From an uncultured Solirubrobacterales bacterium (GTDB lineage Bacteria; Actinomycetota; Thermoleophilia; Solirubrobacterales; 70-9), in contig CAWFIM010000003.1 of NCBI GenBank assembly GCA_963815885.1, forward strand, positions 196,234 to 260,233: a stretch of DNA of 64,000 bases, written 5' to 3'. The notes under the pieces are model-generated. The model saw nothing but the letters and a program-made list of their open reading frames with translations, ran no database searches and was not told the origin of the DNA. The translations under genes were made by a program, and so were the position numbers. Below, in pieces: positions 5,697-63,051 of this stretch. Each line of letters begins with the position of its first letter. The first letter of the stretch is position 1.

Positions 5697-5700
5697 CGCG

Positions 5701-6165: not shown

Positions 6166-6175
6166 CCCGGCGAGG

Positions 6176-8906: not shown

Positions 8907-8968
8907 CGGCTATTTGCCGAGCCCGGCATAGCTTGATCGTGAACTTCGACGCTAGCGACCGCCCGGAC

Positions 8969-9187: not shown

Positions 9188-9241
9188 CCCCGTCCGCGTG
9201 AACGTACGCCCTAGTAAGAGTCACTGTCCAGAACGCTTACA

Positions 9242-9478: not shown

Positions 9479-9510
9479 CGTCAGGAACTTGAGGTGGATC
9501 ATCTCACCTC

Positions 9511-10578: not shown

Positions 10579-10605
10579 CCTAGAATCCTACCTTCGCAAT
10601 CGACT

Positions 10606-10914
10606 CTAATGTGGGGGCAATGCTGGCGGTGGGATACAAAGGCGACTCTCTCCTCGGCGTAAACGCATCGACGAAGCAAAGAACGTGTACCTCCCCCGAA
10701 GTGGAGTTCGGCATTGAGAAGAGCGGCTCACTGCGCCGGTTGGCGAAGCCTTACGAACGTCGCTCCAGCTGCTTCTCCCTACGGTACTCCAGAAAAGCTG
10801 GGGTAGATCAGCGTGTCCGTCAAAGCGAGGGCACTCCAAGCTGTTCGTCACCCCGTCCTGGGACTGAGTGGCGACCATGTCGTTGGCGAAGTAGTTCGTG
10901 CTCAGCGCCGTCAT
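10606..10914 (-). pseudogene. Orphan RHS-core remnant
   Basis: Only the first 24 or so codons (LSTNYFANDMVATQSQDGVTNS) match the main RHS protein ([22 protein letters not shown]). The rest has no RHS character in any frame. Confidence 0.5.
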
Positions 10915-10945
10915 TGCTTTGCAGGTGGCCAGCCAGTGGCGCTGC

Positions 10946-11185
10946 TCATTCGTCGTGATCGTCCACGTTTCGATTCGCTCGCTCGGTTTCCGCTCGGTAT
11001 CGCATCAAGCCCAAGGCCGCGGCGATCCCGCCTCCGACAGGCAGCACCCAGTGTCCCACTACCTGGGTGACGACCAAGATCCCGCTGGTGATCATGAAAG
11101 CCAGCGCGAAGAGCCATATCGTCACTTCGAGGCGCGTCCACCGCCGATTCCGTAGATAGCCAGGCTTATTCACCCGACGCTTCAT
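10946..11185 (-). CDS. 79-aa two-TM protein, candidate RHS immunity protein
   Basis: MKRRVNKPGYLRNRRWTRLEVTIWLFALAFMITSGILVVTQVVGHWVLPVGGGIAAALGLMRY... Its ATG lies 11 nt after the RHS stop. The ORF-track entry 10946..11422 overlaps the toxin gene, so I trimmed it. Confidence 0.5.
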   Translation of the reverse strand: MKRRVNKPGYLRNRRWTRLEVTIWLFALAFMITSGILVVTQVVGHWVLPVGGGIAAALGLMRYRAETERANRNVDDHDE

Positions 11186-11196
11186 GACATCTGGAC

Positions 11197-14100
11197 CTAA
11201 CATAAGCCCGCCAAGTCGCCCGCACCGGTTCCAGCAGCGAAGATACCTACAATGAAAGATGCGCCACCGGTTACGGGAGCCAGCGCAAGCCCAGTCGCCG
11301 CGACGCCCGAGCCCCACGCTATCCAACCGCAGGCATGCGCATCCTCTGATCCAAGCTGCGCTTCTCCTGCCGTTGCTTTCTCCGCCCTTTGCTGCACTTC
11401 CGTAATTTCTTGAGCATGCCACTTATTTACTTTGTTTTGGATGCGTTCGAGAAAATTGGGGGCGTGTTCCAGGTAGTGCAAGAAGCGTTCGGCGCCACGC
11501 TGGCTATTGAATTTCGTCACGATCGCACCCCTATTGTTCGCCCTGCGGGCAGCCTGCCTAATCGACGCGGGAGTCGGAGGACCGTAGCATTTCTTATGCC
11601 CAGGATGAGCACATTCCCCAGTTAGATCGAACCCGTTGATCGGGTCCTGATTCGCGTAGTCATACGCATTAGCCGCCCCTCCCATCACAGGATCGGGGGT
11701 CAAGAACCGCCCGATCTGCGGCACGTAACTCCTCGCCCCCATCTGAATCACGCCCGAGGCGAGTTCAGTACGCCGCTGCTTGCCTCCAAGCCACCCATAC
11801 CGGCCCGCGCTGCCAGAGGTGGGATTCCCGAACTCGTCATAGCCGAAGGTTTTTTTCAAGCTCGTAACCAGCGGACTGATCGCCGCGGTGGCGGCCACAT
11901 CACCGTGCAAGTTGGTCAGCTGGAGGGTGATTTCTGAGCCGCTTTCCTGCACGGCGGCGAGTTCCCCGCCGATCCCGGTGATGTTGCGGGTCCAGCTACC
12001 GCCCCGTTCGGTCCAGGCCGGAGAGTCCGATGCGTTGTCGTAGTGGAAGACTTCATAGCCTTCCAGGCCGCCACCGCCCTGCAAGCGCTGTCGCTGGCGA
12101 AGAGAGGCGTCGAGCTGGAAGGTGTTCGTCACTCCGTTCTGGGACTGGCTGGCGACCATGTCGTTGCCGAAGTAGCTCGTGCTCAGCGTTTTGCCGCCGG
12201 CGTAGGCGGCCGGCAGGCTGGTGATCCGCCCGAAGTCGTCGTAGGCGATGCCGGTTGCTTCGAGGCGGTCGGCTTTGTCGTATTTGTAGGTTTGGGTCGT
12301 GCCTCCCGACCCGGCGCAGACGCCGCCGAGTTCGGGGGCCCGGGTCGTCTTCGAGGTCCGATTGGAGTCCTTGTCGTATGCGTAGACGCGCGTCGTGCAG
12401 CTTCCTCCCGTAGGAGTTTCCTGCGCTGAGAGAAGGCGGCCGGCATTGTCGTAGCCGTAGCGGTCGGTGCCGAGGGTTCCGCTTTCGGCGAGGATCTGCC
12501 CATAGATCGAGCGTTCCAGGCCGAAATCGAGCCAGGTGCAACTGGCCCCGCAGGAGCTTGACTTCGTGTAGGTGAGGTGGACCGGTTCCCCGGCGGGGTC
12601 GAAGGTGGTTTTCACGGTCAGGCCGTCGGGAAGACCGCGTTCGACCAAGTTGCCGTCGGCGTCATAGCTCGCCGTGAAGACCCCCGCCGCGGAGTCTTCG
12701 AGTTCCACCGGCAGACCGGTTACCGAATCGTATTTGAGCGTCTGGCTTCCTTTGTTGTCGGTCACCGAGACCGGGCGACTCAGGAGGTCATAGGTGGTGC
12801 TCGCTTTGTTGCCGTCAGCGTCTTCGTAGGAAGTGGGCCGCCCGAGCGAGTCGTAGGTGCTGGTCGTCGCCTGTTTGTCAAAGCCGGCGCATTCTTCGTG
12901 TTCTTCGTCACAGACGAAACGCTGGACGTTCGGCAGCCCGAGAGCTGCGCTGTACTGCGTTTCCGTCTTCGGGATCGGTGCGCCGCCGCCTTCGATCAGC
13001 TTGGTCGTCTGGCGCCCTGCTGCGTCGTAGGTGAGCTTGGTCACGCGCGCCCCTTCGTCGTGCCCGCCGATGCTTTCCTTGACTTTCAGCGGCTCGCCGA
13101 GCTGGTTGTAGGAGAGGACTTCTTTGACGGGGAGGTCGGGAAGTCCCGGGGCTCCAGGCTGAGCGGCTGGCAACACCTTGCAGGGAAGGCCCGCGTAGGC
13201 GGTGCTTTCGCAACTGGGGAATTCCGTTTCTTTTTTGGCGGTGTAGTAGACGGTCTTCGTGGTCCCGGCGCCGCCGCCTTCGGGGTTGGAGGGCTGGCGC
13301 TGTTCGGTCGGCAGGCCGGTCGTTTTGTCATAGACGGTCACCGACTTGATGTTGAGCGCTTCGGGGTTTTCCCCCGCGGGGTCGATGATGGTTTCGGTCG
13401 GCTGGAGGAGCGTCCAGTCGTAGTGGGTTTCGGTGGTCCGCTGATCGGCGTCTTCGCCCTGGCCCGGGATGCTCGCTGCGGAGGTTTCCTTGGTAGGCAG
13501 ATGCGGCTTCGGGTTGCTCGCCGACCAGTTCCCAGGATTGTCATAGAGCACGACCCTGTGCAGGCGCGCTTCCGCCGTCCCGCCGGCGGAGAGGGTGACC
13601 TGATGCAGCGGCCCCCATTCCTCCTGCATCTCGGTCCCGTCGGAGGAATAGGTCCGATGGGTGTCGAGCTGCGCCGCCCGCGTCGCGGTTTCCCCGGCGG
13701 GGGCGGCGAGAGCCCGCAGCCGGTTCTGGGCGCTCAGTTCCCGCACGACGTTGCCGAACTGATCGGTTTCGCTCGTGCTTATCGAGGCGGCCGAGGTTCC
13801 CGCCCCGGCGGGCGTGGCGGTGTTGACGTTCATGCCGTCGGAGTCCATGTAATAGACGGTCGCCCGGGCGTAGCTCGAGGGCGGGCTTGAGGGCACTTCG
13901 GTAGGCGGGAAGATCGCGGTCGCGTCGACCGGGATGTCCTGCTGGCCCCATTTGGCGATCGTTGAGGGACTGAGGTCATATGGCGCGCCGCTGCCGCTGA
14001 GCGGCACCCCGTAGGCGATCGTCGTCTTTGCGGTCGCCGGGGAGGCAAGGAGGCTCGGGCGCTTTGCCACAACGAGCCGCCCTGCTTCTTCCTCTTCGTC

Positions 14101-16842
14101 GGCGAAGCCGTATTCGAGCGTCCAGGGCTGCTGGCCCGGAGGCGTGATCGTTTTCAGCTGGCCGGTGGCGGTGTAGGAGTAGGTCTCTTCCAGCGCCGGG
14201 GAGATGCGGGGGTCCCAGGCTGCGGAGAGAAATCCTTCGGGGTTGTAGACGTAGCGCGCGACTTCCCAGTTTTTCTGCACCCCTTCAGAGGGGCCGTAGA
14301 AGCTGATGGAGGTCAGCCGGTCTCCGTAGGCATACGTCGTGTAGGTGAACTTCAGGGATTTGCACCCGAACGTCGTCAGCGGCGAGGTTTCGCAGTTGAT
14401 CCCGGGTGGCGTCGGCGCGACGATCGTGTCCAGCCGCTTCTTCACCAAGTCGTAGTTCAGGCGCGAGAGGTTGCCCGAGCCGCCGAGCTGGGAGACCGAG
14501 ACCGGCAGGTATTCGCTGCCGCCGCTGCTGTTGGCAAAGGTCGTGCGTTCGCCTTCGGGAGTCGCCAAGACCAGCTGGCCGGAGCCGTTTTTGATCAGGC
14601 CGTAGCCGGCGAGTTCGGGCGGGGTGATGAAGCTTTCGCCCTGCTTTTCGAAGGCGATTTCGGCGCCTTCGGTCGTTTTGAGCAGAGCGTAGGCGTAGCT
14701 GAAGGTGACGGTTTCTTCTTCTTCGTAGGATTCCGTTTCTTCGACGATCTTGGCGCTTGCCCAGGGGCTGCCGCCGGCCATTTCCATCGCCCCGCTCGGT
14801 TCCCAGCCCGGTCCGAGGACTTTCTTCATTTCCCTTTGGTAGGGGGATTCGTTGTCCTTGTCCGGGATTTTGCTCAGGTTCACCCCGCGGGAGTTGAAGG
14901 AGCGCGAGAAGCCGAGCGGGCTTTTGAAGGCCGGGATCGTGGCGTCGGTTCGGGAGACCGAGAGGTTGCCGGTGAGCAGGTCAAGCGTCCCCGGTCCCAC
15001 TGCCGCGGTCGCGTCTTTCGGTCCCCCGAGGGCGCGGTTGACCTTCGCTTCGACCGGCACGCTCAGGCCGTCCTGGCTGCCCGTGGTGTTGAACAGGGCA
15101 CGGATCTGGATCGTCCCGCCTTTTTTCTGCAACGCGCTCGTCGCGTGGGCGGCGTCGAAGTAGAGCGTTTTGCTCTGTTTGACGCCCGAGACCGCCAGCG
15201 GCCAGCTCACCGCCTGGTTGTTGGCATCGCGAACGAGGTTGGAGGGGATCAGCTCGAAGGGTCCTTTTTTGCCTTCGCGATAGAGGAAGCTGACCCCGGT
15301 AACGCCCGGTTCTGACCAGCCCGCCTGCAACCGCAGCCGCCTCGCCGTCACGGTGCCCTCGCTCGGCAAGGTGACCTTGCTGGAGCTCGGCGCAGCCGCG
15401 TAGTAGGTGAGCGTCAGCTTCGGCCTCGTTTCGACCGGCGAGGTCGAGGAGGAACGGAAGGAGACGTAGCGGCGCGGGCAGACGCCGGCGGATTCGCATT
15501 CCGCCGTCCTGGTCTCGTTGTTCTGCTTGACGACGAGACCTTGATTTTCGATCGAGCCGGCAACCCAGCCGGCCACCAGTTTTCGCAAGCTTTCCGACTG
15601 GAATTCCCACCAACCCGCTTTGCTGTTGAGCGTCTGGGCCAGACCTTCGGAGTTGAAGTCCCCGCCGGGCGTCGTCCAAGGGTGATCAGCATTTCCGGTC
15701 GGCGATTCCCAGTTAAGCGCCGAGCTCCATGACTTCGTGACCCTGCGGGTTTCAAGGCCGGTGGTGTTCTCGGGGGCAGCGGGCGCGTATAGCCCGAGCA
15801 CCGCTTTGCTCACATAGGAGCTCTGGCTCAACGAGCCGCTGTGGTCTGATCCCGCTGGAAAGCGCAGAAACGTGCGAATCGGCTGTTTTTCTATCTGGCT
15901 GTAGGCGACGAGGAGTTCTGAGCCTCCGGTGGTGCCGCACTGGTGCCAGCCTTTGGGAGGCGACGTGCTTCCGAGGTCGCAATCGAGCGTCGAGCCCAGC
16001 ATCGTGATCGTCGGGTCGATCGTTGCCGGCCACTGCCGCGCTGGGTCCGAGAGCCATTCGCTGCTCGCGATGACGCTCAAGATCCACTTGCCTTCTGGGG
16101 CCTGTTCGAGCCCATAGTGCACTGCGCTCGCGGGAGCGGGTAGGCCGCCGCCGCTGTCGGCGATCGTCGGGGCCGGCAAGGTTGCGAAGTCGTTCCCCGC
16201 TTCATCGCGGATCTCGATCGAGCCGTCCTCGGCGAGTTCCGGCGTCAGGTCGCCCGATAGATCAAGCTCGAAGCGATATTCGTTGGGCTGGGAGGAGTTC
16301 TGCAGGACGATGCTCTCCTTGAGCCCGTCGCTGAGGCTCTGCAGCTCGAAGGAGAGGGCGCCGTTCGCGGCTTCATAGGTCGCGGTCGCTCCTTCTACTT
16401 CGGCGGTTTCGCTCGTCGGACCGAGGTAGCGATAGGCAACCCAGCTCCCTTCTTCGGAGAGGCGAACCGGTTCCTGACCCATTTCTTCGGGGAGATGGAG
16501 GTCGAAGGAGTTGGCGCCGTTGGTCACTCCCCCGCCCTGCGCTCCTTCGAGTTCTTCTTCGATGGGTTTCCATTCCCCGTCGGCCGTTTCGTAGTTGACC
16601 GGGGCTGGGAATAATTCGGTCTGTAGCTCTCCGCTCGGGAGCAGGTAGGTGTCCGAGGTAGAGGTGCGCTGGTCTGGCAGCTCGGTGCGCGCTGGCGCTT
16701 CTTCCCCTGCGGGCGGTTCACTCTCACCGCGGGCCACGCCGAGGCGGATGCTCAGGGACAGGCCCGTCATCACGAGCAGGGCGGCAATGAACCAGAAAAT
16801 GCCGCGGGTGATCGGGCGGTGCGCAGCGCTGTGAGATCGCAA
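11197..16842 (-). CDS. Sec-exported DNRLRE-domain / RHS (YD-repeat) polymorphic toxin
   Basis: Many YD repeats ([49 protein letters not shown]) and the RHS core end [17 protein letters not shown]...[12 protein letters not shown] propose a TTG start at 16842, preceded by AGGAGG-aatc and followed by the TM/signal segment [22 protein letters not shown]. The longest ORF reaches 17037. Confidence 0.9.
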
Positions 16843-17131
16843 GATTCCTCCTGAATGTTTTGGCCAAGACCAGAACCCGCGACACTCGCCGCGTACCAGC
16901 CGGGGACAGTGCGCGGCATGACGCAGCGACCCTGCTCCCTCCCTACTCACCGGATGTCTAACAGTCAGCCGATCTTCGTGCGACCTTAGTTTTAATGATT
17001 GTTCATTTTTCCCAGATGAAACCCTTAGCTCGGTCAAAATCGGCTGTCCGAGGCGAGGGTCATTGCTCCCGAAATGTGTGTTCGCCGGAGTTCGATATAG
17101 AGTCCCGGCGAGTCGTCCCGATGATCAGGCG

Positions 17132-18049
17132 ATGTCCTTCATGAGTGCGCCGCGCTCGGCCCCTCGCCTACTCGTCGGGACGTTCGAGCTGTACCTGCGC
17201 TACCCGTTCCTCTTCCTCTTTCTCGCCGCCGGGGTAATCGTCCCCTACGAACTGATCGCACTTACGGCGACCGGCACCGGAGCTTTCTCGCGCACCGATA
17301 CGAGCGCCGGCGCTCAGCTCTTCCTCACCCTGGCCGACTTTGCGCTGATCACCCCGCTGGTCTCGGCACTACACATTCACGCAGTTGCCGAAGTGAAGCG
17401 CGACCAGGAGCCTCGGATCGGTCCCGTCACCCTTCAGGGACTCAGGGTTCTGCCGGTCGTAGCCGCGGCGACGATCGCCTCCTGGCTTGGAATCACGGTC
17501 GGGTTCGCCTTGCTGATCGTCCCTGGGTTGATCCTCCTGCTGCGCTGGGCCGTGGTCGCGCAGACCGCGGCGATCGAGCACGAGGGTTGGCTGCCGGCGC
17601 TGCGCCACAGCGGCCGGCTGACCGCGGGGAACTACGGCCACATCGCAGTCTTCCTCGTCATCCTCTGTGGGATCGCGACCGTGCCGTTCATCATCGGCGG
17701 TATCGCCTTTGGACATCACGGCACCGGGACGGCCTCATTCCTCACCGGACTCGCGATTCGCATCTTCACCGCGTCCTTCACGGCACTGGCGGGGGCGCTC
17801 CTCTATTACGACCTCATGGCGCGCTGGGAGGAGGAACCTCAACCAGCTAGCGCCCAGAGAACTTCCTTCGATCCGCGTGCCCACTCGGACCTCGACCGTC
17901 CCAAGGGCTGGTACGTCGACCCCTCCTCCCCCAGCTCGATGCGGCACTGGGGCGGAAGCGAGAGGCCCGAGTGGAGCAGCCGCACCCGGACTCCCCGGAA
18001 GATCAGGCGGGCCTGGCGAACCGAGGACAAGGATGGGTCGCCTGGATGA
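17132..18049 (+). CDS. Polytopic membrane protein with C-terminal DUF2510-like motif
   Basis: Several TM helices, and the C-terminus GWYVDPSSPSSMRHWGGSERPEW resembles the GWYPDP...RYWDG..W motif. I chose the internal ATG. Confidence 0.55.
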   Translation: MSFMSAPRSAPRLLVGTFELYLRYPFLFLFLAAGVIVPYELIALTATGTGAFSRTDTSAGAQLFLTLADFALITPLVSALHIHAVAEVKRDQEPRIGPVTLQGLRVLPVVAAATIASWLGITVGFALLIVPGLILLLRWAVVAQTAAIEHEGWLPALRHSGRLTAGNYGHIAVFLVILCGIATVPFIIGGIAFGHHGTGTASFLTGLAIRIFTASFTALAGALLYYDLMARWEEEPQPASAQRTSFDPRAHSDLDRPKGWYVDPSSPSSMRHWGGSERPEWSSRTRTPRKIRRAWRTEDKDGSPG

Positions 18050-24189: not shown

Positions 24190-24420
24190 CGTGCAAAAAC
24201 CGCGCGGGTCCTCCCACGCGGCCGGGAGGATCATAGCCATCCCGGCATCTATACTGCCGCGCCAGCAATGCCGAATCCCGTCCGGGCAACCGAGCGGGAG
24301 CGGAGGAACCGCAGGGACCAGGCAGGTCCCAGGGGCGAATCGAACGAAAACGTTCGTAGCGCATCTCTTTCAGCGCGAGCCCGACAGCTAACTCCGTAGG
24401 CGATCGAAAGAGAGGGCTGG

Positions 24421-46734: not shown

Positions 46735-47136
46735 ATGCCCGTCCGCGTCGAGTTGATAGACGAGGCTGTTGTTGACCTGGCGGAACTGACAGAGAGCGGC
46801 AACATCAAGCAGTTCTTCAAGAAGCTTCTAGAAGTAGAGGCTCACGGAGCCGACGCGGGACAGCCCCTCGGGGGGAAATTAGTTGGCTGGCGCAAACTTA
46901 CGGTCGGCAACCGGAACTGGCGCATCGTCTTTCATGTCAATAAGGCTGAGACGGTCGCAACGGTCTGCGTCATCGGAGATCGTGAGGACGCGGCTTGCTA
47001 CGAGGAGGCGCAGAGGCGCGCCAAACAGGCCAACGACATCGACGCTGCCTCGCTGGCGGCGTCGATGATCGATGTCTTAGGCAGCCGCAAGCAGCGTAGG
47101 GCAGCGAAAACGAAAGCAAAAGCAGTTAAGAGCTAG
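46735..47136 (+). CDS. RelE/ParE-superfamily toxin-like protein with Lys-rich tail
   Basis: LGGKLVGWRKLTVGNRNWRIVFHVNKAETVATVCVIGDRED matches the RelE/ParE core pattern. I chose the ATG at 46735, 5 nt after the antitoxin stop. Confidence 0.65.
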   Translation: MPVRVELIDEAVVDLAELTESGNIKQFFKKLLEVEAHGADAGQPLGGKLVGWRKLTVGNRNWRIVFHVNKAETVATVCVIGDREDAACYEEAQRRAKQANDIDAASLAASMIDVLGSRKQRRAAKTKAKAVKS

Positions 47137-52308: not shown

Positions 52309-52713
52309 TCAGACGGAGCGCAGGAGCAAAAAGACCACGAAGACAAGGGCCAGAACCCCAAACGACCAGCCCCAAATCCGGGTGTAGGCGCCAATCAGTC
52401 CATAGCCGCGCGGCTTGCGGCCACAGCCTTCTTCGAGGTAGCCGGCGTTGACGGGCTCCGGCAAGGTTTCTTCGTCCTCGACCAGCGTCTCGGCCAGCAG
52501 GGCGCGGGCTTTCTCGGAGCAGTCGGCGCGGACCAGAACCCGCCGCGAGCCGCCGCCTGGGTTCAGCCAGCCGATACCGACCTGGGGGCCGTTCACGCTC
52601 AGCGGCTGCACGAGGCTGGGGATGCCAGCGCCCTTGAGCAGTCCCTGGACCATCTCCGCTTCGACCTGGTCATTGGCGAAGGCGACCGCGACCAGCTCAT
52701 CACCGCCCGACAT
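52309..52713 (-). CDS. DUF2007-like domain protein with C-terminal TM anchor
   Basis: LVAVAFANDQVEAEMVQGLLKGAGIPSLV plus a C-terminal GWSFGVLALVFVVFLLL. Confidence 0.5.
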   Translation of the reverse strand: MSGGDELVAVAFANDQVEAEMVQGLLKGAGIPSLVQPLSVNGPQVGIGWLNPGGGSRRVLVRADCSEKARALLAETLVEDEETLPEPVNAGYLEEGCGRKPRGYGLIGAYTRIWGWSFGVLALVFVVFLLLRSV

Positions 52714-53192
52714 CAGCTGAGCTGGTAGAGCACCCAGACCAGGATCACCGCGCCGAGGAAGGCCGCGCCGACCCAGAGCGCCAGGCGCGCGGGCGAGGTG
52801 ACGCCGGTTTCTCCGTGGGCGAGCTGCCGTTGCTCTTCCAGCTCGCGCCGCTCTTCGTCCTCGTCCTCGACCATCGTGTCGGCGAGGACGTCGCGAGCTT
52901 TCCTGGCGACGTCGGAGTGGACGTACACGTCGTGCGGACCGGCGGCGAGGAAATCGGGATTGTCGAAGCCGCCGCTGCGCTTCAGCACGCTGGGGATGCC
53001 CGCCTCCGACAGCAGTCCCTGCAGCATTTCGGCTTCGGCTTGGTTGCGAGCGAAGGCGACCTTGACGAGCTTGCCGCCGCCACCGCCGCCGCCTCCCCCG
53101 CCATCGCCGCCATGCGATCCGCCCCCGCCGCCGCCATGGGCGCCGCGCTGGTGGGCGCCGTGGGTGCGGCTATGCGACTTCGAGCTCGGCAT
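52713..53192 (-). CDS. DUF2007-like domain protein with His/Gly-rich N-tail and C-terminal TM anchor
   Basis: SKSHSRTHGAHQRGAHGGGGGGSHGGDGGGGGGGGGG, then LVKVAFARNQAEAEMLQGLLSEAGIPSVL and a C-terminal TM segment LALWVGAAFLGAVILVWVL. Confidence 0.5.
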   Translation of the reverse strand: MPSSKSHSRTHGAHQRGAHGGGGGGSHGGDGGGGGGGGGGKLVKVAFARNQAEAEMLQGLLSEAGIPSVLKRSGGFDNPDFLAAGPHDVYVHSDVARKARDVLADTMVEDEDEERRELEEQRQLAHGETGVTSPARLALWVGAAFLGAVILVWVLYQLS

Positions 53193-53568
53193 CGGCGATC
53201 TTCAGGTCGTGGAGCAGGTAGCCCTTGACGTCGGGGTTCTCGGCGTCCTGCAGGGAGACGATCACGTAGACCTGTTCGGGCCAGGCGACCGCCTGGTTGA
53301 CGTCGGTCTGGGAGGGATAGGCGGCGCTCTTGGTGTGCGAGTGGTAGATCCCGAGCAGCTCGCCGCCGCCGCCTTCGATCGATTTCAGCGCGTCGTACTG
53401 CTCCTGCGGGTCCATCTCGTAGCGCAGCGGGCTGGCGGCGGAGTTGGCGACCCGGATCACCTCGCTCGCCTCACCGTCGCGGCCGCCGATCATCCCGCAG
53501 CACTCGTTCGGCAGGTCCTCGCGCGCGTGCGCGACCATCTCATCGATCAGGCTCTGGGAAATGCGCAT
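53170..53568 (-). CDS. mec: JAMM/MPN+ metalloprotease (Mec-like)
   Basis: NECCG and HSHTKSAAYPSQTD (HxHx7Sx2D) motifs. Confidence 0.85.
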   Translation of the reverse strand: MRISQSLIDEMVAHAREDLPNECCGMIGGRDGEASEVIRVANSAASPLRYEMDPQEQYDALKSIEGGGGELLGIYHSHTKSAAYPSQTDVNQAVAWPEQVYVIVSLQDAENPDVKGYLLHDLKIADAELEVA

Positions 53569-53586: not shown

Positions 53587-54552
53587 TTACCACCAAACGG
53601 TGGAATCGAGGTTTTCGATCTCCTCGATCGGTTTCGTGTAGACGCCGGAGGAGAGGTACTTCCAGCCGTCGTCGGGGATCAGGAAGACGACGTTGCCGCC
53701 GTCCAGCTCGCCGGCAATGCGGGTGGCGATCGCGGCGATTGCGCCGGAGGAGACGCCGGCGAAGATGCCTTCCTCCTCGAGCAGCCGCTTGGTCCAGACG
53801 ATCGCGTCGCGGTTGGAGACCATGATCTTGCGGTCGAGGATCGAGAGGTCGATGATCGGCGGGATGAAGCCGTCGTCGAGGCTGCGCAGCCCCTGGACTT
53901 CCTCGCCTTGCATCGGCTCGGAGGCGACGATCAGCGTCTCTGGGTTCGCCTCCTTGAGGCGGCGGCCGTTGCCCATCAGGGTGCCGCCGGTGCCGAGCCC
54001 GCCGACGAAGGCCGCGACCTCGTCGAGCTCATCGAGGATCTCGACTGCGGTGCCGTTGTAGTGGGCGAGCGGGTTGGCCTCGTTGCCGTACTGGTAGGGC
54101 ATGTAGTAGCTCGGATCGTCGGCCATCTCCAGCGCCACCTCGACCGCCCCGTTGGAACCCTTGGCGCCCTCGGAATAGACGATCTCTGCCCCGTACATGC
54201 GCAGCAGCTGGGTGCGCTCCTCGGTGACGTTGTCGGGCATCACCACCTTCAGCGGGTAGCCCTTGCGGCGGCAGATCATCGCCAGCGAGATGCCGGTGTT
54301 GCCGGAGGTCGGCTCGAGGATCGTCTGACCCGGTTCGATCGCCCCCTCGGCCTCGGCCGCCTCGATCATCGACTTCGCGACCCGGTCCTTGACCGACCCG
54401 GTCGGGTTGCGGCCCTCGAGCTTGGCGTAGATGCGCACCTCGGGCTTCGGCGAGAGCCGCGGCAGCTCGACCAGCGGCGTGTTGCCGATCGACTCGACGA
54501 TGTCGCCGAAGCGTCCCCCGCAGGGCCTGTTGAGCAGTTCGTCGCGGATCAT
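53587..54552 (-). CDS. cysM: Cysteine synthase, CysM-type (sulfur-carrier dependent)
   Basis: NPTGSVKDR PLP lysine and SGNTG motifs. It is adjacent to the JAMM protease gene. Confidence 0.85.
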   Translation of the reverse strand: MIRDELLNRPCGGRFGDIVESIGNTPLVELPRLSPKPEVRIYAKLEGRNPTGSVKDRVAKSMIEAAEAEGAIEPGQTILEPTSGNTGISLAMICRRKGYPLKVVMPDNVTEERTQLLRMYGAEIVYSEGAKGSNGAVEVALEMADDPSYYMPYQYGNEANPLAHYNGTAVEILDELDEVAAFVGGLGTGGTLMGNGRRLKEANPETLIVASEPMQGEEVQGLRSLDDGFIPPIIDLSILDRKIMVSNRDAIVWTKRLLEEEGIFAGVSSGAIAAIATRIAGELDGGNVVFLIPDDGWKYLSSGVYTKPIEEIENLDSTVWW

Positions 54553-54562: not shown

Positions 54563-54581
54563 TTACTTCAAAAAGTATAGC
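54563..54581. promoter_or_regulatory. Shared 19-bp AT-rich motif, copy 1 (upstream of cysM)
   Basis: TTACTTCAAAAAGTATAGC, identical to 58641-58659. It contains the inverted repeat TACTT-N4-AAGTA. Confidence 0.5.
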
Positions 54582-54705
54582 CACGGGGGCCCAGGCGATG
54601 TGGGTTGCGCCGGGCACCCGCCCGGGAGTAATTTGGCTGGGATCCGGGTAGTTACCCGCCGGGTACAGCCACCCCGTCAACACCCCGTCAACGGAGGAGC
54701 TCGCG

Positions 54706-55537
54706 ATGAAGAACCCCCGGCTTCGTGCCTTGCCAGCCCTCGCGGCCGTGCTCGCGCTGGGCGCCTTCGCGACCGGCTGCGGCGGTGGCAACGACGACGG
54801 CGCCGGCGGGCGGAGGCGGCGGGGGCGAAAAGCTCACGGTCGGCTCCGACGTCCCCTACCCGCCGTTCGAGGAATTCGGCAAGACGAAGTCCGAATTCAA
54901 GGGCTTCGACATCGAACTGGTGGAAGCGATTGCCCAGAAGATCGGGCGCACGCCCGAATTCAAGGACACGTCGTTCGACACGATCTTTCGCGATCTCGCG
55001 CAGGGCAAGTTCGACATGGTCGCCTCGGCGACGACGATCACCCCCGAACGCGAGGAAACCGTCGACTTCACCAACCCGTACTACCTGCCCTCGGCGCAGT
55101 CGATCGTCGTCAAAAAGGGGAACTCCGACCTGAAAACGGGCAAAGACCTCAAGGGTCTCGTCGTCGGAGTGCAGCAGGGGACCACCGGCGAGGAATACGC
55201 CGAAGAAGAAATCGACACCAAGGAACTGCGGACCTACCCCCAGGGCCCCGACACGATCCCGGCCCTGAAGGCGGGGACGATCGATGCGGTCGTGATCGAT
55301 CGCCCGGTTGCCGAAAACATCATCGCGGCCGACAGCGATCTCGAAATCTCGGGCGGGATCGAAACGGAAGAACAGTACGGATTCGTCGTCCAGCAGGGCG
55401 ATGAAGGGCTGCTCGACGAACTCAACGAAGCCCTGAAGGAAGTCATCGACTCGGGGGAATACGAGACGATCTACAGGAAGTGGTTCCACAAGCCGGTCCC
55501 GCCGGGGATCGGCACCACTACCCACGAAGCGGAATGA
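54706..55537 (+). pseudogene. Polar amino acid ABC transporter substrate-binding lipoprotein, +1 frameshift
   Basis: The lipoprotein signal MKNPRLRALPALAAVLALGAFATGCGGGNDDG is in the frame of ORF 54706, and the mature domain GGGGGEKLTVGSDVPYPPFEE... is in the frame of ORF 54725. The span is 832 nt (3n+1), with the shift in a G-rich stretch at about 54800-54825. Confidence 0.8.
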
Positions 55538-55571
55538 CCCGGGCCTGACCGGCCCGAAGACATTGGCGTGG

Positions 55572-55602
55572 GAAAAGGGGCCGGCTCGCCGGCACCCTTT
55601 TC
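55572..55602 (+). terminator. Intra-operon hairpin between binding-protein and permease genes
   Basis: gaaaaggggccggc-tc-gccggcacccttttc forms a GC-rich stem with one bulge. The downstream U-tract is weak. Confidence 0.35.
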
Positions 55603-55644
55603 AATGAAAGCGGGTAGAGGCGGGTCCGACGCCAGGAGGACGCG

Positions 55645-56391
55645 ATGAACGAGATCATCGAACAGTACTTCGACCTCTCGCAGATGTCGAAACACTTCGA
55701 CGAGGTCTTGAACGGGTTCGTGATCACCCTCGAACTCGCGCTCCTCGCGACCGTGCTGGCGCTGATCTGGGGGCTCCTCCTTGCCCTGCTCCGCCAGCTT
55801 CCGGGCAGGGGATTCCTCCCGGTGCGGTTTCTCACGATCGGCTACATCGACGTCTTCCGCGGCGTTCCCCTACTGATCTTGATTCTGCTGATCTCCGGCA
55901 GCCTCGCCTTCCTGCCGCTGCCGGAGGCGCTCACCATCCCCCACTGGCTGGGCAAACCGGACAACTTCTGGTACGGGATCATGGCCTTGGTGCTGGTCTA
56001 CGGCGCCTACTACGCGGAGGTGTACAGGGCCGGGATCGAAGCGGTTCCGAGCGGCCAGATGGAGGCGGCCCGGTCGCTCGGGATGAGCCACGGCCAGGCG
56101 ATGCGCAGCGTGGTGGTCCCGCAGGCGGTTCGCAAGGTGCTCGCGCCGATGCTGAACGAATTCACGGCGCTGCTGAAGGACACGACGCTGGTCAGCGTGA
56201 TCGCCCTGAACGAGGTGGCGCTGGTCGGCCGGGATATCCAGTCCAAGACCTTCAACAGCTCGGCGCTGACCCTCGGCGCAATCCTGTTCCTGATCATCGT
56301 CCTGCCCCTGGCCCGGCTGGTCGACAGGCTGATCGCGCGCGAACGGGCGCGGACCTCCCGCGGCGGGACGCCCCAGGTCATGCACCACTAG
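55645..56391 (+). CDS. Amino acid ABC transporter permease
   Basis: Polytopic protein with an EAA-like loop ([22 protein letters not shown]). Confidence 0.85.
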
Positions 56392-56398
56392 GCGCCAG

Positions 56399-57163
56399 AT
56401 GGCGGAGCCGATGCTGAGATTGGAGGGGGTCCGCAAGCGCTTCGGTGAGCTCGAGGTGCTGCGCGGGATCGACCTGGAGATCGCCAAAGGGGAAGTCGTC
56501 TGCGTGCTCGGTCCGAGTGGCTCCGGCAAGAGCACCCTGCTGCGCTGCGTCAACCTGCTCGAGCCTCCCGAGGACGGCCAGATCTTCCTCGAGGGCCGGG
56601 ACATCTGCAGGGGACCGAAGTCGGGCACCGGCGAGGAAAGCTGGGAGCTCGACTTCGTCCGCCAGCGGGTCGGGATCGTCTTCCAGCAGTTCAACCTCTT
56701 CCCGCACAAGACGGCGCTGCAAAACGTGTCGATGGCGCCCGAAAAGGTTCTCGGCCGCTCCAAGGCGGAGGCTCAGGCCAGGGGCACCGATCTGTTGACG
56801 CGGGTCGGCCTCGCCGACAAGCTGAACGAATACCCGGAACGGCTGTCGGGCGGCCAGCAGCAACGGGTGGCGATCGCCCGGGCGCTGGCGATGGACCCGC
56901 ACGTGATGCTGTTCGACGAGGTGACCAGCGCGCTCGATCCCGAGCTGGTCAAGGAGGTGCTCGACGTGCTGCGCGAGCTGGCGGCGGAGGGGATGACGAT
57001 GATCGTGGTCACCCACGAGATCGGCTTCGCCCACGAGGTCTGCGACCAGGTCGTGTTCATGGACGACGGCGTGATCGTCGAGCGGGGCGAGCCGGCTGAC
57101 GTGCTCGACAACCCGCGCGAGGAGCGAACGCGGAAATTCCTGGGATTGGTGCTGGGCGCCTAA
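56399..57163 (+). CDS. Amino acid ABC transporter ATP-binding protein
   Basis: Walker A (GPSGSGKST), signature (LSGGQQQR) and Walker B (VMLFDE). Confidence 0.9.
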
Positions 57164-57435
57164 CGGCCGCCGGCCATCGCCGGCAGGATCACGACGGTGT
57201 CGCCGTCGGTGACGGCGGTGTCGAGCCCATCCAGCACCCGCACGTCCTCGTCGTTGAGGTAGACGTTGACGTAGCGGTTGAGGTCGCCGTCCTCGCCGAA
57301 CAGCTGCGCCTGGGTATCGGGGTACTCGCCGGTCAGCGCCCGCAGGACCTCGCCGACGCTGCCACCGGCTGCCTCGACCTCGGGCTGACCGCCCGTTTTC
57401 GGGCGCAGCACAGGGGGGATCCTCACGGTCGCCAT
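57160..57435 (-). CDS. cysO: MoaD/ThiS-family sulfur carrier (CysO-like) ending in GG-R
   Basis: 91-aa protein with a beta-grasp pattern and the C-terminus ...ILPAMAGGR*. Confidence 0.8.
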
Positions 57436-57454
57436 CGGCTGGGAAACCTATCGC

Positions 57455-58612
57455 CTATCCGGCGCAGAAGAGCTCGTAGTCGGGGAACTGGCCCAGCTCC
57501 GACTCCGGTATCTCCGGCGCGTTCTCGCCGCAGATCGGGCACTCCGGGTCGCGTCGGACCTTCAGCTCCGTGAATCTCGTGCCGAGCGCCTCGTAGAGCA
57601 GCAGGCGACCGATCAGCGGCTCGCCGACGCCGAGGACCAGCTTGATCACCTCGTTTGCCTGCAGCGTGCCCATCGTCCCCGCCATCACGCCGAGGACGCC
57701 GTTGGCGGAGCAGCTCGGCGCCAGCTCGGCCGGCGGCGGCGTCGGGTAGAGGCAGCGGTAGCAGGGCCCCTCGAAGGGGACGAAGGTCGAGATCTGGCCG
57801 TCGAAGCTGAGGATCGAGGCGGAGACGACCGGCTTGCGCAGCCGCACCGAGGCGTCGTTCAGGAGGTAGCGGGTGGGGAAGTTGTCGGCGCCGTCGACGA
57901 CGATGTCGTAGTCGCGGAGCACCTCGAGGATGTTGCCGGCGCTGAGCCGCATCCGGTGCTCGACCACGTCGACGTCGGGGTTCAGCGCCTCGATCGTCTT
58001 GCGCGCCGATGCGGTCTTCGGCTCGCCGATCCGTTCGGTGTTATGGATCACCTGGCGCTGCAGGTTGGAGGCGTCGACCACGTCGTCGTCGACCAGCCCG
58101 ACCGTGCCGATCCCGGCAGCGGCCAGGTAGAGCGCCGTCGGCGCGCCGAGCCCGCCGGCGCCCAGCAGCAGCACCTTCGCGTTCAGCAGCTTGATCTGGC
58201 CGTCGACCCCGACCTCCGGCAGCAGCGTGTGACGCGAGTAGCGCTCGCGCTGCTCAGCGGTCATGCCCTGCGCGGCGACGACCGGCAGCCCCTGCTCCTG
58301 CCAGGCGAGGATGCCACCGCCCATCGAGGCGACGTTCTCGTAGCCCAGCTCCTGCATCTGTGCGGCAGCAATCGCCGAGCGGTTGCCGGAGCGGCAGTAG
58401 AGGATCGTGCGGGCCGACTTGTCGGGGGCCGCCGACTCGATCTCGTCGCCGAGCAGGCCCGGCGGGACCAGCTTGCCCCCCTCGAGGTGAGCCTCCTGGT
58501 ACTCGTGCGGCTCGCGCGTGTCGACCAGGACGACGTCGCCGCCCTTGATCTCCTCCGCCGCCTCGAACGGCTCGATCTCCTCGATCGTCTGGGTTCCTAC
58601 GCCGCTTGCCAT
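57455..58612 (-). CDS. Rhodanese-ThiF/MoeB fusion E1-like adenylyltransferase/sulfurtransferase (MoeZ-like, rhodanese at the N-terminus)
   Basis: N-terminal rhodanese with YCRSGNRS, then LLLGAGGLGAP and the CYRC and CPIC zinc pairs. Confidence 0.85.
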   Translation of the reverse strand: MASGVGTQTIEEIEPFEAAEEIKGGDVVLVDTREPHEYQEAHLEGGKLVPPGLLGDEIESAAPDKSARTILYCRSGNRSAIAAAQMQELGYENVASMGGGILAWQEQGLPVVAAQGMTAEQRERYSRHTLLPEVGVDGQIKLLNAKVLLLGAGGLGAPTALYLAAAGIGTVGLVDDDVVDASNLQRQVIHNTERIGEPKTASARKTIEALNPDVDVVEHRMRLSAGNILEVLRDYDIVVDGADNFPTRYLLNDASVRLRKPVVSASILSFDGQISTFVPFEGPCYRCLYPTPPPAELAPSCSANGVLGVMAGTMGTLQANEVIKLVLGVGEPLIGRLLLYEALGTRFTELKVRRDPECPICGENAPEIPESELGQFPDYELFCAG

Positions 58613-58640
58613 CGCTAAATCTCCTAAATCCGGATCAGCT

Positions 58641-58659
58641 TTACTTCAAAAAGTATAGC
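58641..58659. promoter_or_regulatory. Shared 19-bp AT-rich motif, copy 2 (upstream of the E1-like gene)
   Basis: TTACTTCAAAAAGTATAGC, identical to 54563-54581. Confidence 0.5.
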
Positions 58660-58743: not shown

Positions 58744-58953
58744 GTGAAGATCCGCTCGTCCCTCGCTGTACTCGCAGCCGCCGTAGCCCTGGCCGTCACC
58801 GCCGTCCCCGCCACCGCCGGCGACAAGGACTGCTCCGACTTCAGCACCTGGCAGCAGGCGCAGCACTTCTACAAGAAGCACGGCGGGCCGCGGTACGACC
58901 CGCACCGGCTCGACGCCGACCACAACGGCATCGCCTGCGAGAGCCTGCGCTAG
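58744..58953 (+). CDS. Secreted Excalibur calcium-binding domain protein
   Basis: Signal peptide plus DCSDF...DADHNGIACE (DxDxDGxxCE). GTG start. Confidence 0.7.
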   Translation: MKIRSSLAVLAAAVALAVTAVPATAGDKDCSDFSTWQQAQHFYKKHGGPRYDPHRLDADHNGIACESLR

Positions 58954-59934: not shown

Positions 59935-60795
59935 ATGACCGTCGCGGTGATCGTCGTGCTCGCCCTGGCCGTGGCCGCGCTGGGGGCCGGCCTGCTCCGC
60001 CTCAGGCGCCGCTTCGCCCCGCTGGAGCGGCTGGTCGAGGAGATGGAGAAGGTCGACCTGAGCCGGCCTGGCCCGCTGCTGCCGGCCTCAATCGACGGCG
60101 TCGGCGAAACCGAGGAGGTTGAGCGGATCGAGCTCGCCTTCCTGCGGATGATCCGGCGCCTGGAAGCCGAGCGCCGCCGCGCCGGCTCCGCTGCCCTGCG
60201 GGCGCAGGAGGAGGAGCGCGCCCGCGTCGCCCGCGACCTCCACGACGAGGTGAACCAGTCGCTGACCGGCCTGCTGCTGCGGCTCGAGGCGGTGCGGGAG
60301 GCGGCGCCGGCCGAGCTGGAGCCCGAGCTGGCCGAGACCAAGGCCCTGGCCAACCAGGCGATGCACGAGCTGCTCTCGCTGGCCCGTCAATTGCGACCGA
60401 CGGCGCTCGACGACCTCGGTCTGGCGGCGGCGATCGGCGGTCAGGTCGAGCGACTCTCCCGCGGTGAGCTAGCGGCCGAGCTGCACGCCGACGGCGACTT
60501 CTCCGACCTCGGCGACGACGCCCAGCTCGTCGTCTACCGGGTCGCCCAGGAGGCGCTCTCCAACGCCGCCCGGCACAGCGGCGCCGGGCACGTCGAGGTG
60601 GGGTTGCGACGAGCCGGTTCCGGCGGCGTCGAGCTGACGGTCGCCGACGACGGCCGCGGCTTCGCCTTCGACGAGTCCGAGGGCGGCTTGGGCCTGGCCG
60701 GGATGCGCGAGCGGGCGCTCCTGGTCGGCGGCGAGCTGACGATCGAGTCGCGACCCGGCCGCGGCACCACGGTGCGGCTCAGCGTCCCCGGCTGA
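59935..60795 (+). CDS. HisKA_3-type sensor histidine kinase
   Basis: One TM helix, H-box ARDLHDEVNQSL, and DDGRGF and GLGLAGMRER motifs. Confidence 0.85.
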   Translation: MTVAVIVVLALAVAALGAGLLRLRRRFAPLERLVEEMEKVDLSRPGPLLPASIDGVGETEEVERIELAFLRMIRRLEAERRRAGSAALRAQEEERARVARDLHDEVNQSLTGLLLRLEAVREAAPAELEPELAETKALANQAMHELLSLARQLRPTALDDLGLAAAIGGQVERLSRGELAAELHADGDFSDLGDDAQLVVYRVAQEALSNAARHSGAGHVEVGLRRAGSGGVELTVADDGRGFAFDESEGGLGLAGMRERALLVGGELTIESRPGRGTTVRLSVPG

Positions 60796-60832: not shown

Positions 60833-62369
60833 GTAAGCGTTCAGCCCCTCATGCCCTGTGGGGTAGACGTGCCCGAGTCGGCTCTGCTCAGACCAGCGAA
60901 GGCGCGGGGCTTGCCCGTGCCGAGGCGGTTATCGCCTCGACCAGGAAGCCGAAGAGTGAGCGGCCCTGCAGCCGGCAGGTCTGAGAGACCGAGAGCATCC
61001 GCTCGGCAAAGCGCTCGCCTGCATTGGACTGGCTGCCGAGGGAGATCTTGCGGTAGATCACCGCTCCACGCAGCCCGCGCTCGGCACGGTTGTTGGTCGG
61101 CTCCACCTCCTCGATCTCGGTGAAGGTCCAAAGCGCCGGCCAGAGCTTCAAGAGGTTGCGGGCAAAGGTGCGGAACTGACGGTTGAGCATGCTCTTCTTG
61201 CGGTGGGGCTCAAGCAGAGCCCGCAGGCGGCGCTTGATCGGTGCAATCTCGCGGGCGAGACGATCTCGATCGCCGTGGCCGGCGAAGGAATCCCAGGCAC
61301 GGAAGAGCTCCCTGGCAGATCTCCAAGCCCCGCCTCGCCGAAGCGCCCTTGGTCTGCGAGCCCTTCGGAGTGGCGGCGGAAGTCGCGCAGCAGGTGAGCC
61401 CAGCAGACCTGGCGCCGAGCGGGATCAAGGGAGTCATAAGCCCACCAGCGATCCGAGGAGACGATGCCGGCGAAGCTCTCGCCGATCAGCCCCGGCAACT
61501 CACGCTCATGGCGATCGGCGGCGATATGGAAGGCGGCAAGGCTGTCGGTGATTGCGCCCCACAGGGTTCGCTTTTGCCCGGCGCAGCGCCAGCCGGTCTC
61601 ATCGACGCAGATGACGGGTGAGTCCTTGACCGCCTCGCGCAGCCCGGCGTATGGCTCGGCCAGGGCGCCGGAAGTGCGCTGGCAGATCGCATCGACCGAG
61701 CCGGCCGAGACTTCGCAGCCAAACAGCTCGCCGCAGAGCTCGGAGGCATCGCGGCGAGAGATCCGGTTGCGCACAGAAAGCAATGAGACCGCCGCCTGCA
61801 ACCTGGGTCCGAAGGCGCTTTGGCGGATCTCCTCGGGCAACGATGCGCGCGGGTGCTCGTCCCGCAACCGGGGCAACGCAGCGAGTGGGCCCGGTGCTCG
61901 GTGACCCTGACCGCGATTGGCGGCAGCTCCGTGACCTGGTGGCGGTGAGGCGGGGCGGCATGATCGCTGCGATCGAGATCGCCGCCCGCAGCCCGAGCAA
62001 CGCTCGGGCCAGTGATCGACGATCTCATCCAGCTCCGATTCGGCCACGAGCTTGCGAGCCGTTCCTTTGTGACCGGGCTGGGCACCCTGCTTGCGGGTGC
62101 TCGCTCCACGCCCCTGCCGAGAAGGCTTGCCCGGCGGGTCGGCCGAAGGCGGCCGGGAGGAGTTCTGGGAGCTCTCGCGCAGCTTCTCCTCAAGGCGCTC
62201 GATCCGCGCCTCCAGGCGAGTGACCTGGCGCTCATAGCGGGCAGTCAGCTCGACCAGGAACTCGACGCACGCCTCACGACCGGCGTCATAGACCGCCTCG
62301 GCTTCGGCGCGCTCCACACCAAGGAGTTCGCCGGGCCGTTATGTCCCCCTGCCGGGGCTGAACGCTTAC
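60833..62369 (-). mobile_element. IS66-family insertion sequence (1537 bp)
   Basis: Perfect 16-bp TIRs, GTAAGCGTTCAGCCCC (60833-60848) and GGGGCTGAACGCTTAC (62354-62369), flanked by an 8-bp direct repeat. Confidence 0.9.
60888..62317 (-). pseudogene. IS66-family transposase (TnpC-like) with at least 3 frameshifts
   Basis: Family motifs are spread over three frames. These include SSRPPSADPP, QPGHKG, RHQVTELPPIAVRVTEHRAHSLRCPGCG (second frame), VICVDETGW and CWAHLLRDF. ELFRAW...VEPTNNRAERGLRGAVIYRKISLGSQS lies in the third frame (ORF 60888..61190). Confidence 0.85.
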
Positions 62370-62421: not shown

Positions 62422-63051
62422 GTGCGCGTCTTGATCGCCGACGACCATGGGATCGTTCGCTCCGGGATTCGGCTGCTGCTGGAGCGCCAGCCGGACATCG
62501 AGGTCGTGGCCGAGGCGGCCGACGGCGCCGAGGCGCGGGACCTGGCGGTGCGCGAGCGCCCCGACCTGGCGATCCTCGACGTGAAGATGCCGAAGCTGAC
62601 CGGGCTGCAGGCGACCCGCGAGATCAAGCGGCAGGCGCCCGACATCTCGGTCCTGATCCTCTCCATGCACGACGACGAGCGCTACCTGTTCGAGGCGCTG
62701 AAGGCAGGCGCCTCCGGCTACGTGCTGAAGGCGCAGGCCGACACCGACCTGCTGGCGGCGATCCGCGCGGTGCAGCGCGGCGAGCCGTTCCTGACGCCGG
62801 AGGCCCAGCGGACCCTGATCAAGGACGTGCTGCAGCGCGGCTCCAGCGGCGAGGAGGAGCTGACCCCGCGCGAGGAGGAGATCGTCAAGCTGGTCGCCGA
62901 GGCGAACACGACGAAGCAGATCGCCGCGGTCCTGCACCTCTCCGAGAAGACGGTCGAGAACCACCGCGCCAACGCGATGCGCAAGCTCGGCATGCGCGAC
63001 CGGGTCGAGCTCGTCCGCTACGCGATCCGGCGCGGTCTGATCGAGCCCTAG
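62422..63051 (+). CDS. NarL/LuxR-family response regulator
   Basis: Receiver domain (VLIADDH...LAILDVKMP) plus LuxR HTH (LTPREEEIVKLVAEANTTKQIAAVLHLSEKTVENHR). Confidence 0.9.
   Translation: MRVLIADDHGIVRSGIRLLLERQPDIEVVAEAADGAEARDLAVRERPDLAILDVKMPKLTGLQATREIKRQAPDISVLILSMHDDERYLFEALKAGASGYVLKAQADTDLLAAIRAVQRGEPFLTPEAQRTLIKDVLQRGSSGEEELTPREEEIVKLVAEANTTKQIAAVLHLSEKTVENHRANAMRKLGMRDRVELVRYAIRRGLIEP

Follow-up and report, generated by a model that had tools for sequence, protein, structure and literature searches.

A 19-bp promoter motif shared by thioredoxin and sulfur-carrier cysteine synthesis genes in Solirubrobacterales, and a candidate HxlR-family regulator

Introduction

In a 64,000-nucleotide stretch of DNA from an uncultured Solirubrobacterales bacterium (GenBank assembly GCA_963815885.1, contig CAWFIM010000003.1, positions 196,234 to 260,233; hereafter the window), an identical 19-bp AT-rich motif lies in front of two operons, cysM-mec-DUF2007 and E1-cysO, which between them hold the genes of sulfur-carrier-dependent cysteine synthesis. 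Comparison with related genomes indicates that the motif defines a regulon made of the thioredoxin system and sulfur-carrier cysteine synthesis, whose sites, orientation and membership are conserved across soil Solirubrobacterales. We propose that the 19-mer is a core promoter and an operator combined, and that a thiol-sensing repressor of the HxlR/DUF24 type binds two half-sites, CTATA-N5-TGAAG, laid over the -10 box and the transcription start site. From the sequences compared here we put the probability of this reading at roughly 0.6.

Solirubrobacterales are among the most abundant Actinomycetota of soil and have barely been cultured. To our knowledge, gene regulation in this order is essentially unstudied. 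The motif offers a testable circuit, composed of a 19-bp promoter-operator, a small and coherent regulon and a named candidate sensor protein. A gene set that is under SigH or SigR in Mycobacterium and Streptomyces appears here under a YodB-like repressor and, if this is true, one regulon has been wired through a different kind of regulator. In metagenomes, the motif is also a highly specific marker by which thiol-stress genes can be annotated.

Two identical copies of the motif in the window

A scan of the window found two exact copies of TTACTTCAAAAAGTATAGC on the plus strand, at 54563-54581 (copy A) and 58641-58659 (copy B). The genes that they precede are on the minus strand, where the motif reads GCTATACTTTTTGAAGTAA; its positions are numbered here in that direction, from G1 to A19. 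An original prediction, made from the letters alone, had described these two copies, together with an inverted repeat TACTT-CAAA-AAGTA and a coding-strand TATACT within them, and all of these were reproduced. The spacings of 11 and 29 nt that it gave to the ATG of cysM and of E1 hold by coordinate subtraction, 10 and 28 bases intervening. Both sites are, as it had said, in divergent intergenic regions, the partners being the gene of an ATP-binding cassette (ABC) binding protein, which starts at 54706, and an Excalibur-domain gene. It had also held chance to be an unlikely origin, and a third copy with up to 3 mismatches was neither found in the 64-kb window nor expected there (0 in 100 shuffles). 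Since the two copies have unrelated flanks, the identity of the copies does not come from a recent duplication.

Both copies equal the consensus of the clade, the exact 19-mer being present in 90 of the 219 sites gathered from relatives. Each reaches 35.6 bits when scored with a matrix derived from other organisms' cysM loci, which had been selected by protein similarity, and nothing else in the window scores as the motif; weaker sites at 7714-7732 (7 bits, before a Fic gene) and 46822-46840 (10 bits, inside an open reading frame) were judged to be chance. An Rfam scan of the window found no family at either motif site. A sigma-70 consensus scan of the 52-60 kb region found no promoter-like site, as expected from the missing -35 box, and an open-access full-text search for the motif sequence returned unrelated primer matches only.

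Thioredoxin and cysteine synthesis genes share the motif

Homologs of CysM point to a Solirubrobacterales-like organism. Four relatives fetched through their CysM proteins (loci L001-L004) keep the gene order cysM-mec-DUF2007 and all carry the motif, in one orientation, before both E1 and cysM. We then scanned the 17-mer GCTATACTTTTTGAAGT against one genome for each of about 186,000 species, which gave at least 120 matches. Among the 120 matches listed, about 108 are in metagenome-assembled genomes (MAGs) of Solirubrobacterales, Thermoleophilia or 'Actinomycetes', and about 10 are obvious chance matches in AT-rich genomes. Gene counts were taken from the matches listed and are therefore relative: the gene downstream is E1 at 63 sites, cysM at 32, thioredoxin at 27, thioredoxin reductase at 2, glutaredoxin at 1 and, at 3, an unknown basic protein divergent from rpoD. 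The regulon is thus much wider than first noted, taking in thioredoxin, thioredoxin reductase and glutaredoxin genes and extending across the clade.

Across about 1 Mb of relatives' loci, all sites that differ from the motif at no more than 4 positions are upstream of, and oriented toward, a regulon-type gene. In high-GC loci, about 220 sites were collected, and 100% of them are upstream of and face a small set of genes, with none inside a gene. This bears on the reading of the motif as a dispersed or mobile repeat that has no regulatory role, which its AT-rich composition in GC-rich DNA and the transposon end often adjoining it might suggest. The original prediction had named such a repeat without promoter bias as its refutation, and what the searches returned was promoter-proximal sites in a single orientation, before functionally coherent genes and between unrelated flanks, a distribution that in effect refutes the repeat and leaves it a negligible probability. 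These data support the motif as a shared regulatory signal of cysM-mec and E1-cysO.

This much of the original prediction, that one regulator could co-control the genes at the two sites, is supported; co-control of the divergent ABC transporter and Excalibur genes is not. The motif has a single orientation and the divergent genes have no copy of their own facing them, it is kept by those of the four relatives in which thiS directly adjoins cysM and no transporter separates the two, and the transporter and Excalibur genes occupy these positions in only some relatives.

Several further observations were made at motif sites. The exact motif precedes an unannotated gene in L074, L080, L107 and L207 (it is degenerate in L205). 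The gene diverges from rpoD, the principal sigma factor gene, its leader of about 130 nt is conserved, and it encodes a basic, low-complexity protein of 139-163 amino acids with no Pfam match. Two exact 17-mers are in MAGs assigned outside Actinomycetota, one in a Sphaerobacteraceae MAG (L027, 767-783), 53 nt upstream of a thioredoxin gene, and one in a Ktedonobacteria MAG (L062, minus strand, 4858-4874), 59 nt upstream of a gene for an old-yellow-enzyme-type NADH:flavin oxidoreductase. The system may extend to Chloroflexota; alternatively, the Ktedonobacteria match may be fortuitous, or an error may have placed the contigs in a MAG to which they do not belong.

A repeat end, TTTCAAACTGACCCACYRCC, has 13 copies in 1.4 Mb, 8 of which end 11-13 bp upstream of the motif (loci L020, L026, L032, L051, L082, L116 with two copies, and L192). 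Inverted pairs of this end bound segments of 4-5.5 kb, for example L026 at about 970-5085 and L116 at about 1225-6720, which hold a DDE transposase-like open reading frame (weak IS1/rve_3 matches) and a defence-like cargo made up of an AAA_21 ATPase, a fusion of methylase and Mrr nuclease, and a helix-turn-helix protein. The element resembles a transposon with a fixed insertion distance upstream of the motif promoter, whose -35 region it replaces.

A probable promoter with a -10 box and no -35 box

To obtain a set unbiased with respect to the motif, 80 metagenome loci were picked by CysM protein similarity (62-96% identity), and 64 sites were tabulated. T3, A4 and T8 are 100% conserved in these sites and positions 5-7 vary, which is the TANNNT pattern of actinobacterial -10 boxes. 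Outside this pattern and within it, C2 is 100% conserved, A6 86%, C7 81%, T9 88%, T12 94%, G13 88%, and A14, A15 and G16 94-95%, while positions 10 and 11 are free. The aligned loci show no conserved -35 box or upstream activator site as far as -49.

The position of the start codons points to the transcription start. It is mostly 0-4 nt after G16 in the 80 loci, and in four loci of relatives (L043, L116, L119 and L036) a GTG at motif positions 16-18 is the sole possible in-frame cysM start before the conserved NRPCGG N-terminus, with no space for a ribosome-binding site before it, so that transcription there must begin at A15 or G16. The thioredoxin reductase and glutaredoxin genes also start at the motif GTG, and most other cysM genes 3-4 nt later. 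A start at A15 or G16 would be 7-8 nt after the -10 box, a spacing shared by other candidate leaderless genes of the window. We infer that transcription from the motif starts at A15 or G16 and gives short-leader messenger RNAs (mRNAs) in the window and leaderless ones in many relatives, and the TATACT that the original prediction had offered as a possible -10 box is very probably one, given the invariance of T3, A4 and T8 and the leaderless GTG that follows it by 8 nt in relatives.

The motif seems to hold more than a basal promoter. Generic -10-only promoters in the window have neither the GC that precedes the -10 box in the motif nor the TGAAGT that follows it. In the most distant cysM orthologs TGAAG decays and GCTAnnnT persists with the leaderless start; decay of the one with retention of the other argues that the TGAAG box is a regulatory addition and not part of the basal promoter.

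These results also affect annotation and would correct cysM start-codon calls. Several database cysM entries, of 326-331 amino acids, begin at an ATG just upstream and translate through the motif (MAILFEV...); they include L001 10001-10996 and L003 10001-10981, and proteins P0055, P0053 and P0029. These proteins more likely begin at the leaderless GTG of motif positions 16-18.

Half-sites and a candidate regulator

A signature scan of all the DNA fetched (1.4 Mb) for the HxlR family found only two open reading frames, each 3-6 kb from an exact motif and near rpoD; the HxlR gene and an exact motif are on one contig in L080, L107 and L207. The candidate protein belongs to PF01638, and its best 120 homologs are 84-100% identical to it. 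Compared with solved structures of the family, it matches HypR/YybR (1e-20), YodB (3e-16) and also QsrR, and its Cys8 aligns with HypR Cys14, the residue that is a serine in variant chain 4a5n. Across 20 orthologs there is almost no variation at residues 5-103, and all share a CPVC motif and invariant cysteines at positions 8, 11, 18 and 37. The gene forms an operon with rpiB.

All seven orthologous loci of this gene (L080, L107 and L205-L209) have upstream of it the sequence (A/T)ACTTCAGTT(C/G)GTGAAGCAT(T/C)GCGCTAnnAT-N9-ATG. In 7/7 of them a perfect inverted repeat, CTTCA-N5-TGAAG, covers the -35 region of a leaderless GCTAnnnT promoter, and this repeat was found nowhere else in 1.45 Mb. When the HxlR site ACTTCAGTTCGTGAAGCA is set against the natural cysM variants ACTACACTTCGTGAAGCA, 16/18 positions are identical with the TGAAG boxes aligned, and of the two mismatches one, T4 to A, is precisely the substitution by which the -10 box arises. 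A matrix made from cysM sites only gives the seven HxlR sites as its best matches outside the regulon, at 15-17 bits. Against the perfect palindrome, the half-sites of the window match at 3/5 positions (CTATA) and 5/5 (TGAAG). As judged from their sequences, the motif and the repeat upstream of the HxlR gene are related, and a redox-sensing HxlR-family protein is likely to be the regulator of the regulon.

This relationship changes the way in which the motif should be divided. The original prediction had seen in it a dimeric-regulator operator with the dyad TACTT-N4-AAGTA. A dimeric regulator is indeed the most likely reader of the motif, but the functional dyad is probably another: TACTT-N4-AAGTA does not occur in the operator of the candidate regulator itself, and it leaves C2, T12 and G13 without explanation. 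The alignment CTATA-N5-TGAAG is shifted from it by 3 bp. The -10 box alone does not explain C2 at 100% or A6 at 86%, and the conservation of C2, A6 and T12-G16 would follow from the presence of two half-sites, CTATA and TGAAG, 5 bp apart.

The first-noted dyad could still be read by some other dimeric regulator, the likeness to the HxlR repeat being then a coincidence or the trace of a paralogous regulator. A6, C7, T8 and T9 are complementary to A14, A15, G16 and T17, conservation exceeds 80% in both arms, covariation is seen at the outer pair 5/18, and a score of 13-17 bits is obtained on the reverse strand of the motif as well. We nevertheless find this quite unlikely, as many cysM sites have a changed left arm (TATTC, TCCTT and CAGTT, for instance) with no compensating change, the conservation of T12 and G13 in the supposed spacer and of C2 is not explained, and no other regulator gene was seen adjoining the target genes.

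Other regulators considered were an Rrf2 protein whose gene heads the suf operon, the HisKA_3/GerE pair and a DNA polymerase X next to trx, none of which carries or explains the motif. AosR was also considered and rejected, since it is a DUF2017 protein and the genes of the locus are DUF2007, an unrelated family.

The position of the palindrome before the HxlR gene bears as well on the possibility that no separate repressor exists. The GC at -14/-13, the -10 box and the TGAAGT at -3 to +3 might be one unit, a dedicated promoter recognised under positive control by a specialised sigma or a polymerase-bound factor. Such a self-contained promoter would suit the constant register of -10 box, TGAAG and start codon in at least five gene families, the missing -35 box, and the tolerance of a transposon end about 12 bp upstream in at least 8 loci. 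Sigma-specific promoters normally retain a -35 element, however, and in the distant cysM orthologs that lose TGAAG the -10 part works without the box, which is the behaviour of an ordinary promoter of housekeeping type. Before the HxlR gene, moreover, the perfect palindrome is upstream, not downstream, of the -10 box, a placement that fits a dimer and not contacts made by polymerase, and we regard the dedicated promoter as unlikely.

A further alternative dispenses with any protein factor. The box around the start site might tune initiation, for instance by starting with nicotinamide adenine dinucleotide (NAD(H)), dephospho-coenzyme A or flavin adenine dinucleotide or by sensing how concentrated the initiating nucleotide is, and thereby couple expression to redox cofactors. 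In E. coli the consensus of NAD-capping promoters is HRRASWW and the modal capping start is 7 bp after the -10 box (bioRxiv 10.1101/239426). With A15 as +1, 7 bp after the -10 box, TGAAGTA matches that consensus (H-3 R-2 R-1 A+1 S+2 W+3 W+4) in sequence at 7/7 positions, and the observed variants G13A and G16C remain within R and S. The consensus is degenerate, a chance match having a probability of about 0.6% in each register, and it was noticed post hoc; it explains neither the retention of exact bases, nor the conservation of C2 and A6, nor the palindromic copy upstream of the HxlR gene. We hold an operator-free start-site box to be very improbable. To a combined form, in which TGAAGTA would be a half-operator plus an A at +1 set for cofactor initiation and the mRNAs of the regulon would be capped with redox cofactors, we likewise give very little credence; if true, capping would tie mRNA stability or leaderless translation directly to the redox state of the cell.

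Proposed mechanism and points against it

The reading that we prefer is that of the HxlR/DUF24-type repressor, with the 19-mer as a combined core promoter and operator. The -35-less TATACT would be read by the ordinary RNA polymerase holoenzyme, and laid over this promoter would be the operator for a dimeric regulator of the HxlR/DUF24 family, analogous to YodB, HypR and QsrR. The half-sites CTATA and TGAAG of the targets would be an imperfect copy of the perfect CTTCA-N5-TGAAG of the regulator itself. In its reduced form the dimer would occupy -13 to +2 and block polymerase at the regulon promoters, and would occupy the -35 region at the hxlR-rpiB promoter. Oxidation or alkylation of cysteine would release it and so switch on together E1-cysO, cysM-mec, the thioredoxins, thioredoxin reductase, glutaredoxin and the regulator-rpiB operon. 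With a perfect site of its own and imperfect ones at its targets, the regulator might control itself tightly and be released more easily from the targets. Binding of the motif by the HxlR protein, repression and thiol stress as the signal are all deduced from sequence comparison.

Several points weigh against this reading. The 64-kb window contains no HxlR-family regulator gene. The left half-site of the target promoters fits the palindrome at just 3/5 positions, and C7, conserved at 81%, is not explained by the model. ACTT-N4-AAGT is fairly well conserved, and the covariation of the outer pair 5/18 is 0.64 against 0.42 expected, a difference that lineage or the GTG start codon could have produced. 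Some members of the HxlR family, HxlR itself and HypR among them, are activators. Finally, regulation by the HxlR gene could be purely local, confined to the operon that it forms with rpiB.

Features of the window and neighbouring genes

The features of the two motif regions are given in Table 1. An amino-acid ABC transporter on the plus strand separates the two minus-strand gene groups. Its binding-protein gene (54706-55537) is frameshifted, with a lipoprotein signal peptide (MKNPRLR...FATGC) in one frame and SBP_bac_3 in the next; the frameshift is at a G-rich stretch near 54800-54825 and reflects either an assembly error or a pseudogene. The E1 leader (58613-58640) is conserved among the E1 loci of L001-L124 as AAAGCTGATCCGGATTTAGGAGATTT and holds a palindrome, ATCCGGAT, immediately before the ribosome-binding sequence.

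Table 1. Coordinates of motif elements and surrounding genes in the window
Feature	Position	Strand	Basis or remark
Motif copy A, proposed core promoter and operator of the cysM-mec-DUF2007 operon	54563..54581	-	Exact match; orthologous position kept in relatives
Very probable -10 box TATACT of copy A (motif positions 3-8)	54574..54579	-	TANNNT pattern; GTG 8 nt downstream in relatives
Proposed left half-site CTATA of copy A (positions 2-6), fused with the -10 box	54576..54580	-	Alignment with CTTCA in the operator of the HxlR gene itself
Proposed right half-site TGAAG of copy A (positions 12-16)	54566..54570	-	Identical to right arm of the HxlR operator; 88-95% kept in protein-selected sites
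Predicted transcription start of cysM	54567/54566		From leaderless relatives; leader 14 nt; ribosome-binding sequence GGGAGAG
Motif copy B, proposed core promoter and operator of the E1-cysO operon	58641..58659	-	Exact match; motif also before 63 E1 genes of relatives
Very probable -10 box TATACT of copy B	58652..58657	-	As copy A
Proposed half-site TGAAG of copy B	58644..58648	-	As copy A
Predicted transcription start of E1	58645/58644		Leader about 32 nt; ribosome-binding sequence AGGAG
cysM, CysO-thiocarboxylate-dependent cysteine synthase	53587..54552	-	Pfam PALP, E = 7e-73; homologs so named in source databases
mec, JAMM/JAB peptidase releasing cysteine from CysO	53170..53568	-	Pfam Prok-JAB
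Two DUF2007 genes of the same operon, overlapping the end of mec and each other	52309..53192	-	Pfam DUF2007; overlapping coordinates
E1-like sulfur-carrier activating enzyme, N-terminal rhodanese and ThiF domain	57455..58612	-	Pfam
cysO/thiS-type sulfur-carrier protein gene	57160..57435	-	Pfam ThiS
Excalibur-domain protein gene, 69 amino acids, divergent from E1	58744-58950		Domain match

Beyond E1, an IS66-family transposase fragment with DUF6444 (61148-62317, minus strand) splits a HisKA_3 kinase gene (59935-60795) from a GerE regulator gene (62422-63051); in relatives the HisKA_3 kinase and GerE response-regulator genes are adjacent. A suf operon (sufC-sufS-nifU) headed by an Rrf2-family gene is 2-7 kb upstream of E1 in L001-L004 (4/4), and its counterpart in the window would fall beyond 64000. 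The sole Rfam match of the window is a cyclic di-adenosine monophosphate riboswitch of the ydaO/yuaA type at 24259-24417 on the plus strand (81.6 bits, E = 2e-17). A stretch of lower GC content, at about 8000-18000 (0.60-0.65 versus about 0.71 elsewhere), is possibly an acquired island; a Fic-domain gene (7733-8707) with an AT-rich leaderless-type promoter is at its edge.

Comparison with known systems

As a promoter, the motif resembles the actinobacterial -10-only (TANNNT) leaderless promoters in its invariant T3, A4 and T8, in having no -35 box and in the start codon 7-8 nt after the -10 box in relatives; it differs from the generic ones of the window by the GC and the TGAAGT on either side of that box. 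In gene content, it is closest to the thiol-oxidative-stress regulons of SigH in Mycobacterium and SigR in Streptomyces, which include thioredoxin, thioredoxin reductase, mec-cysO-cysM and moeZ-like E1 genes (PMC8280819), so that nearly the same gene set is co-regulated. In these regulons AosR, a DUF2017 protein, acts at mec-cysO-cysM (PMC8280819), whereas here there is no -35 element and no DUF2017 gene in the cys locus. The SigH/SigR promoter, GGAAT-N18-GTT (17-19 nt spacing), was found within -200 to +60 of 1/200 sites, a rate equal to background.

As a regulator, the candidate resembles YodB, QsrR, CatR and HypR of Bacillus and Staphylococcus. It belongs to the same family, PF01638 (MarR-DUF24), it has a conserved N-terminal cysteine in a 'CP' context, its putative operator overlaps the core promoter, and thiol stress would be the signal; an old-yellow-enzyme-type target is also found, in one Ktedonobacteria MAG. 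The operator of YodB, a Bacillus thiol-stress repressor of the HxlR/DUF24 family, is TACT-N7-AGTA, of 15 bp (PMC8063818), to which the motif bears a resemblance, and that of the candidate would likewise be a 15-bp inverted repeat with half-sites about one helical turn apart. The candidate differs from these proteins in its half-sites, CTTCA/TGAAG, in its CPVC (CxxC) with two more invariant cysteines, and in the fusion of the left half-site of the targets with the -10 box of promoters that are -35-less and often leaderless. The greatest contrast would be in the genes controlled. The direct targets of YodB are quinone and nitro reductases, and the thioredoxin genes of Bacillus are reached indirectly, YodB controlling spx and Spx controlling the thioredoxin genes, whereas the regulon proposed here consists of the thioredoxin system and CysO-dependent cysteine synthesis themselves.

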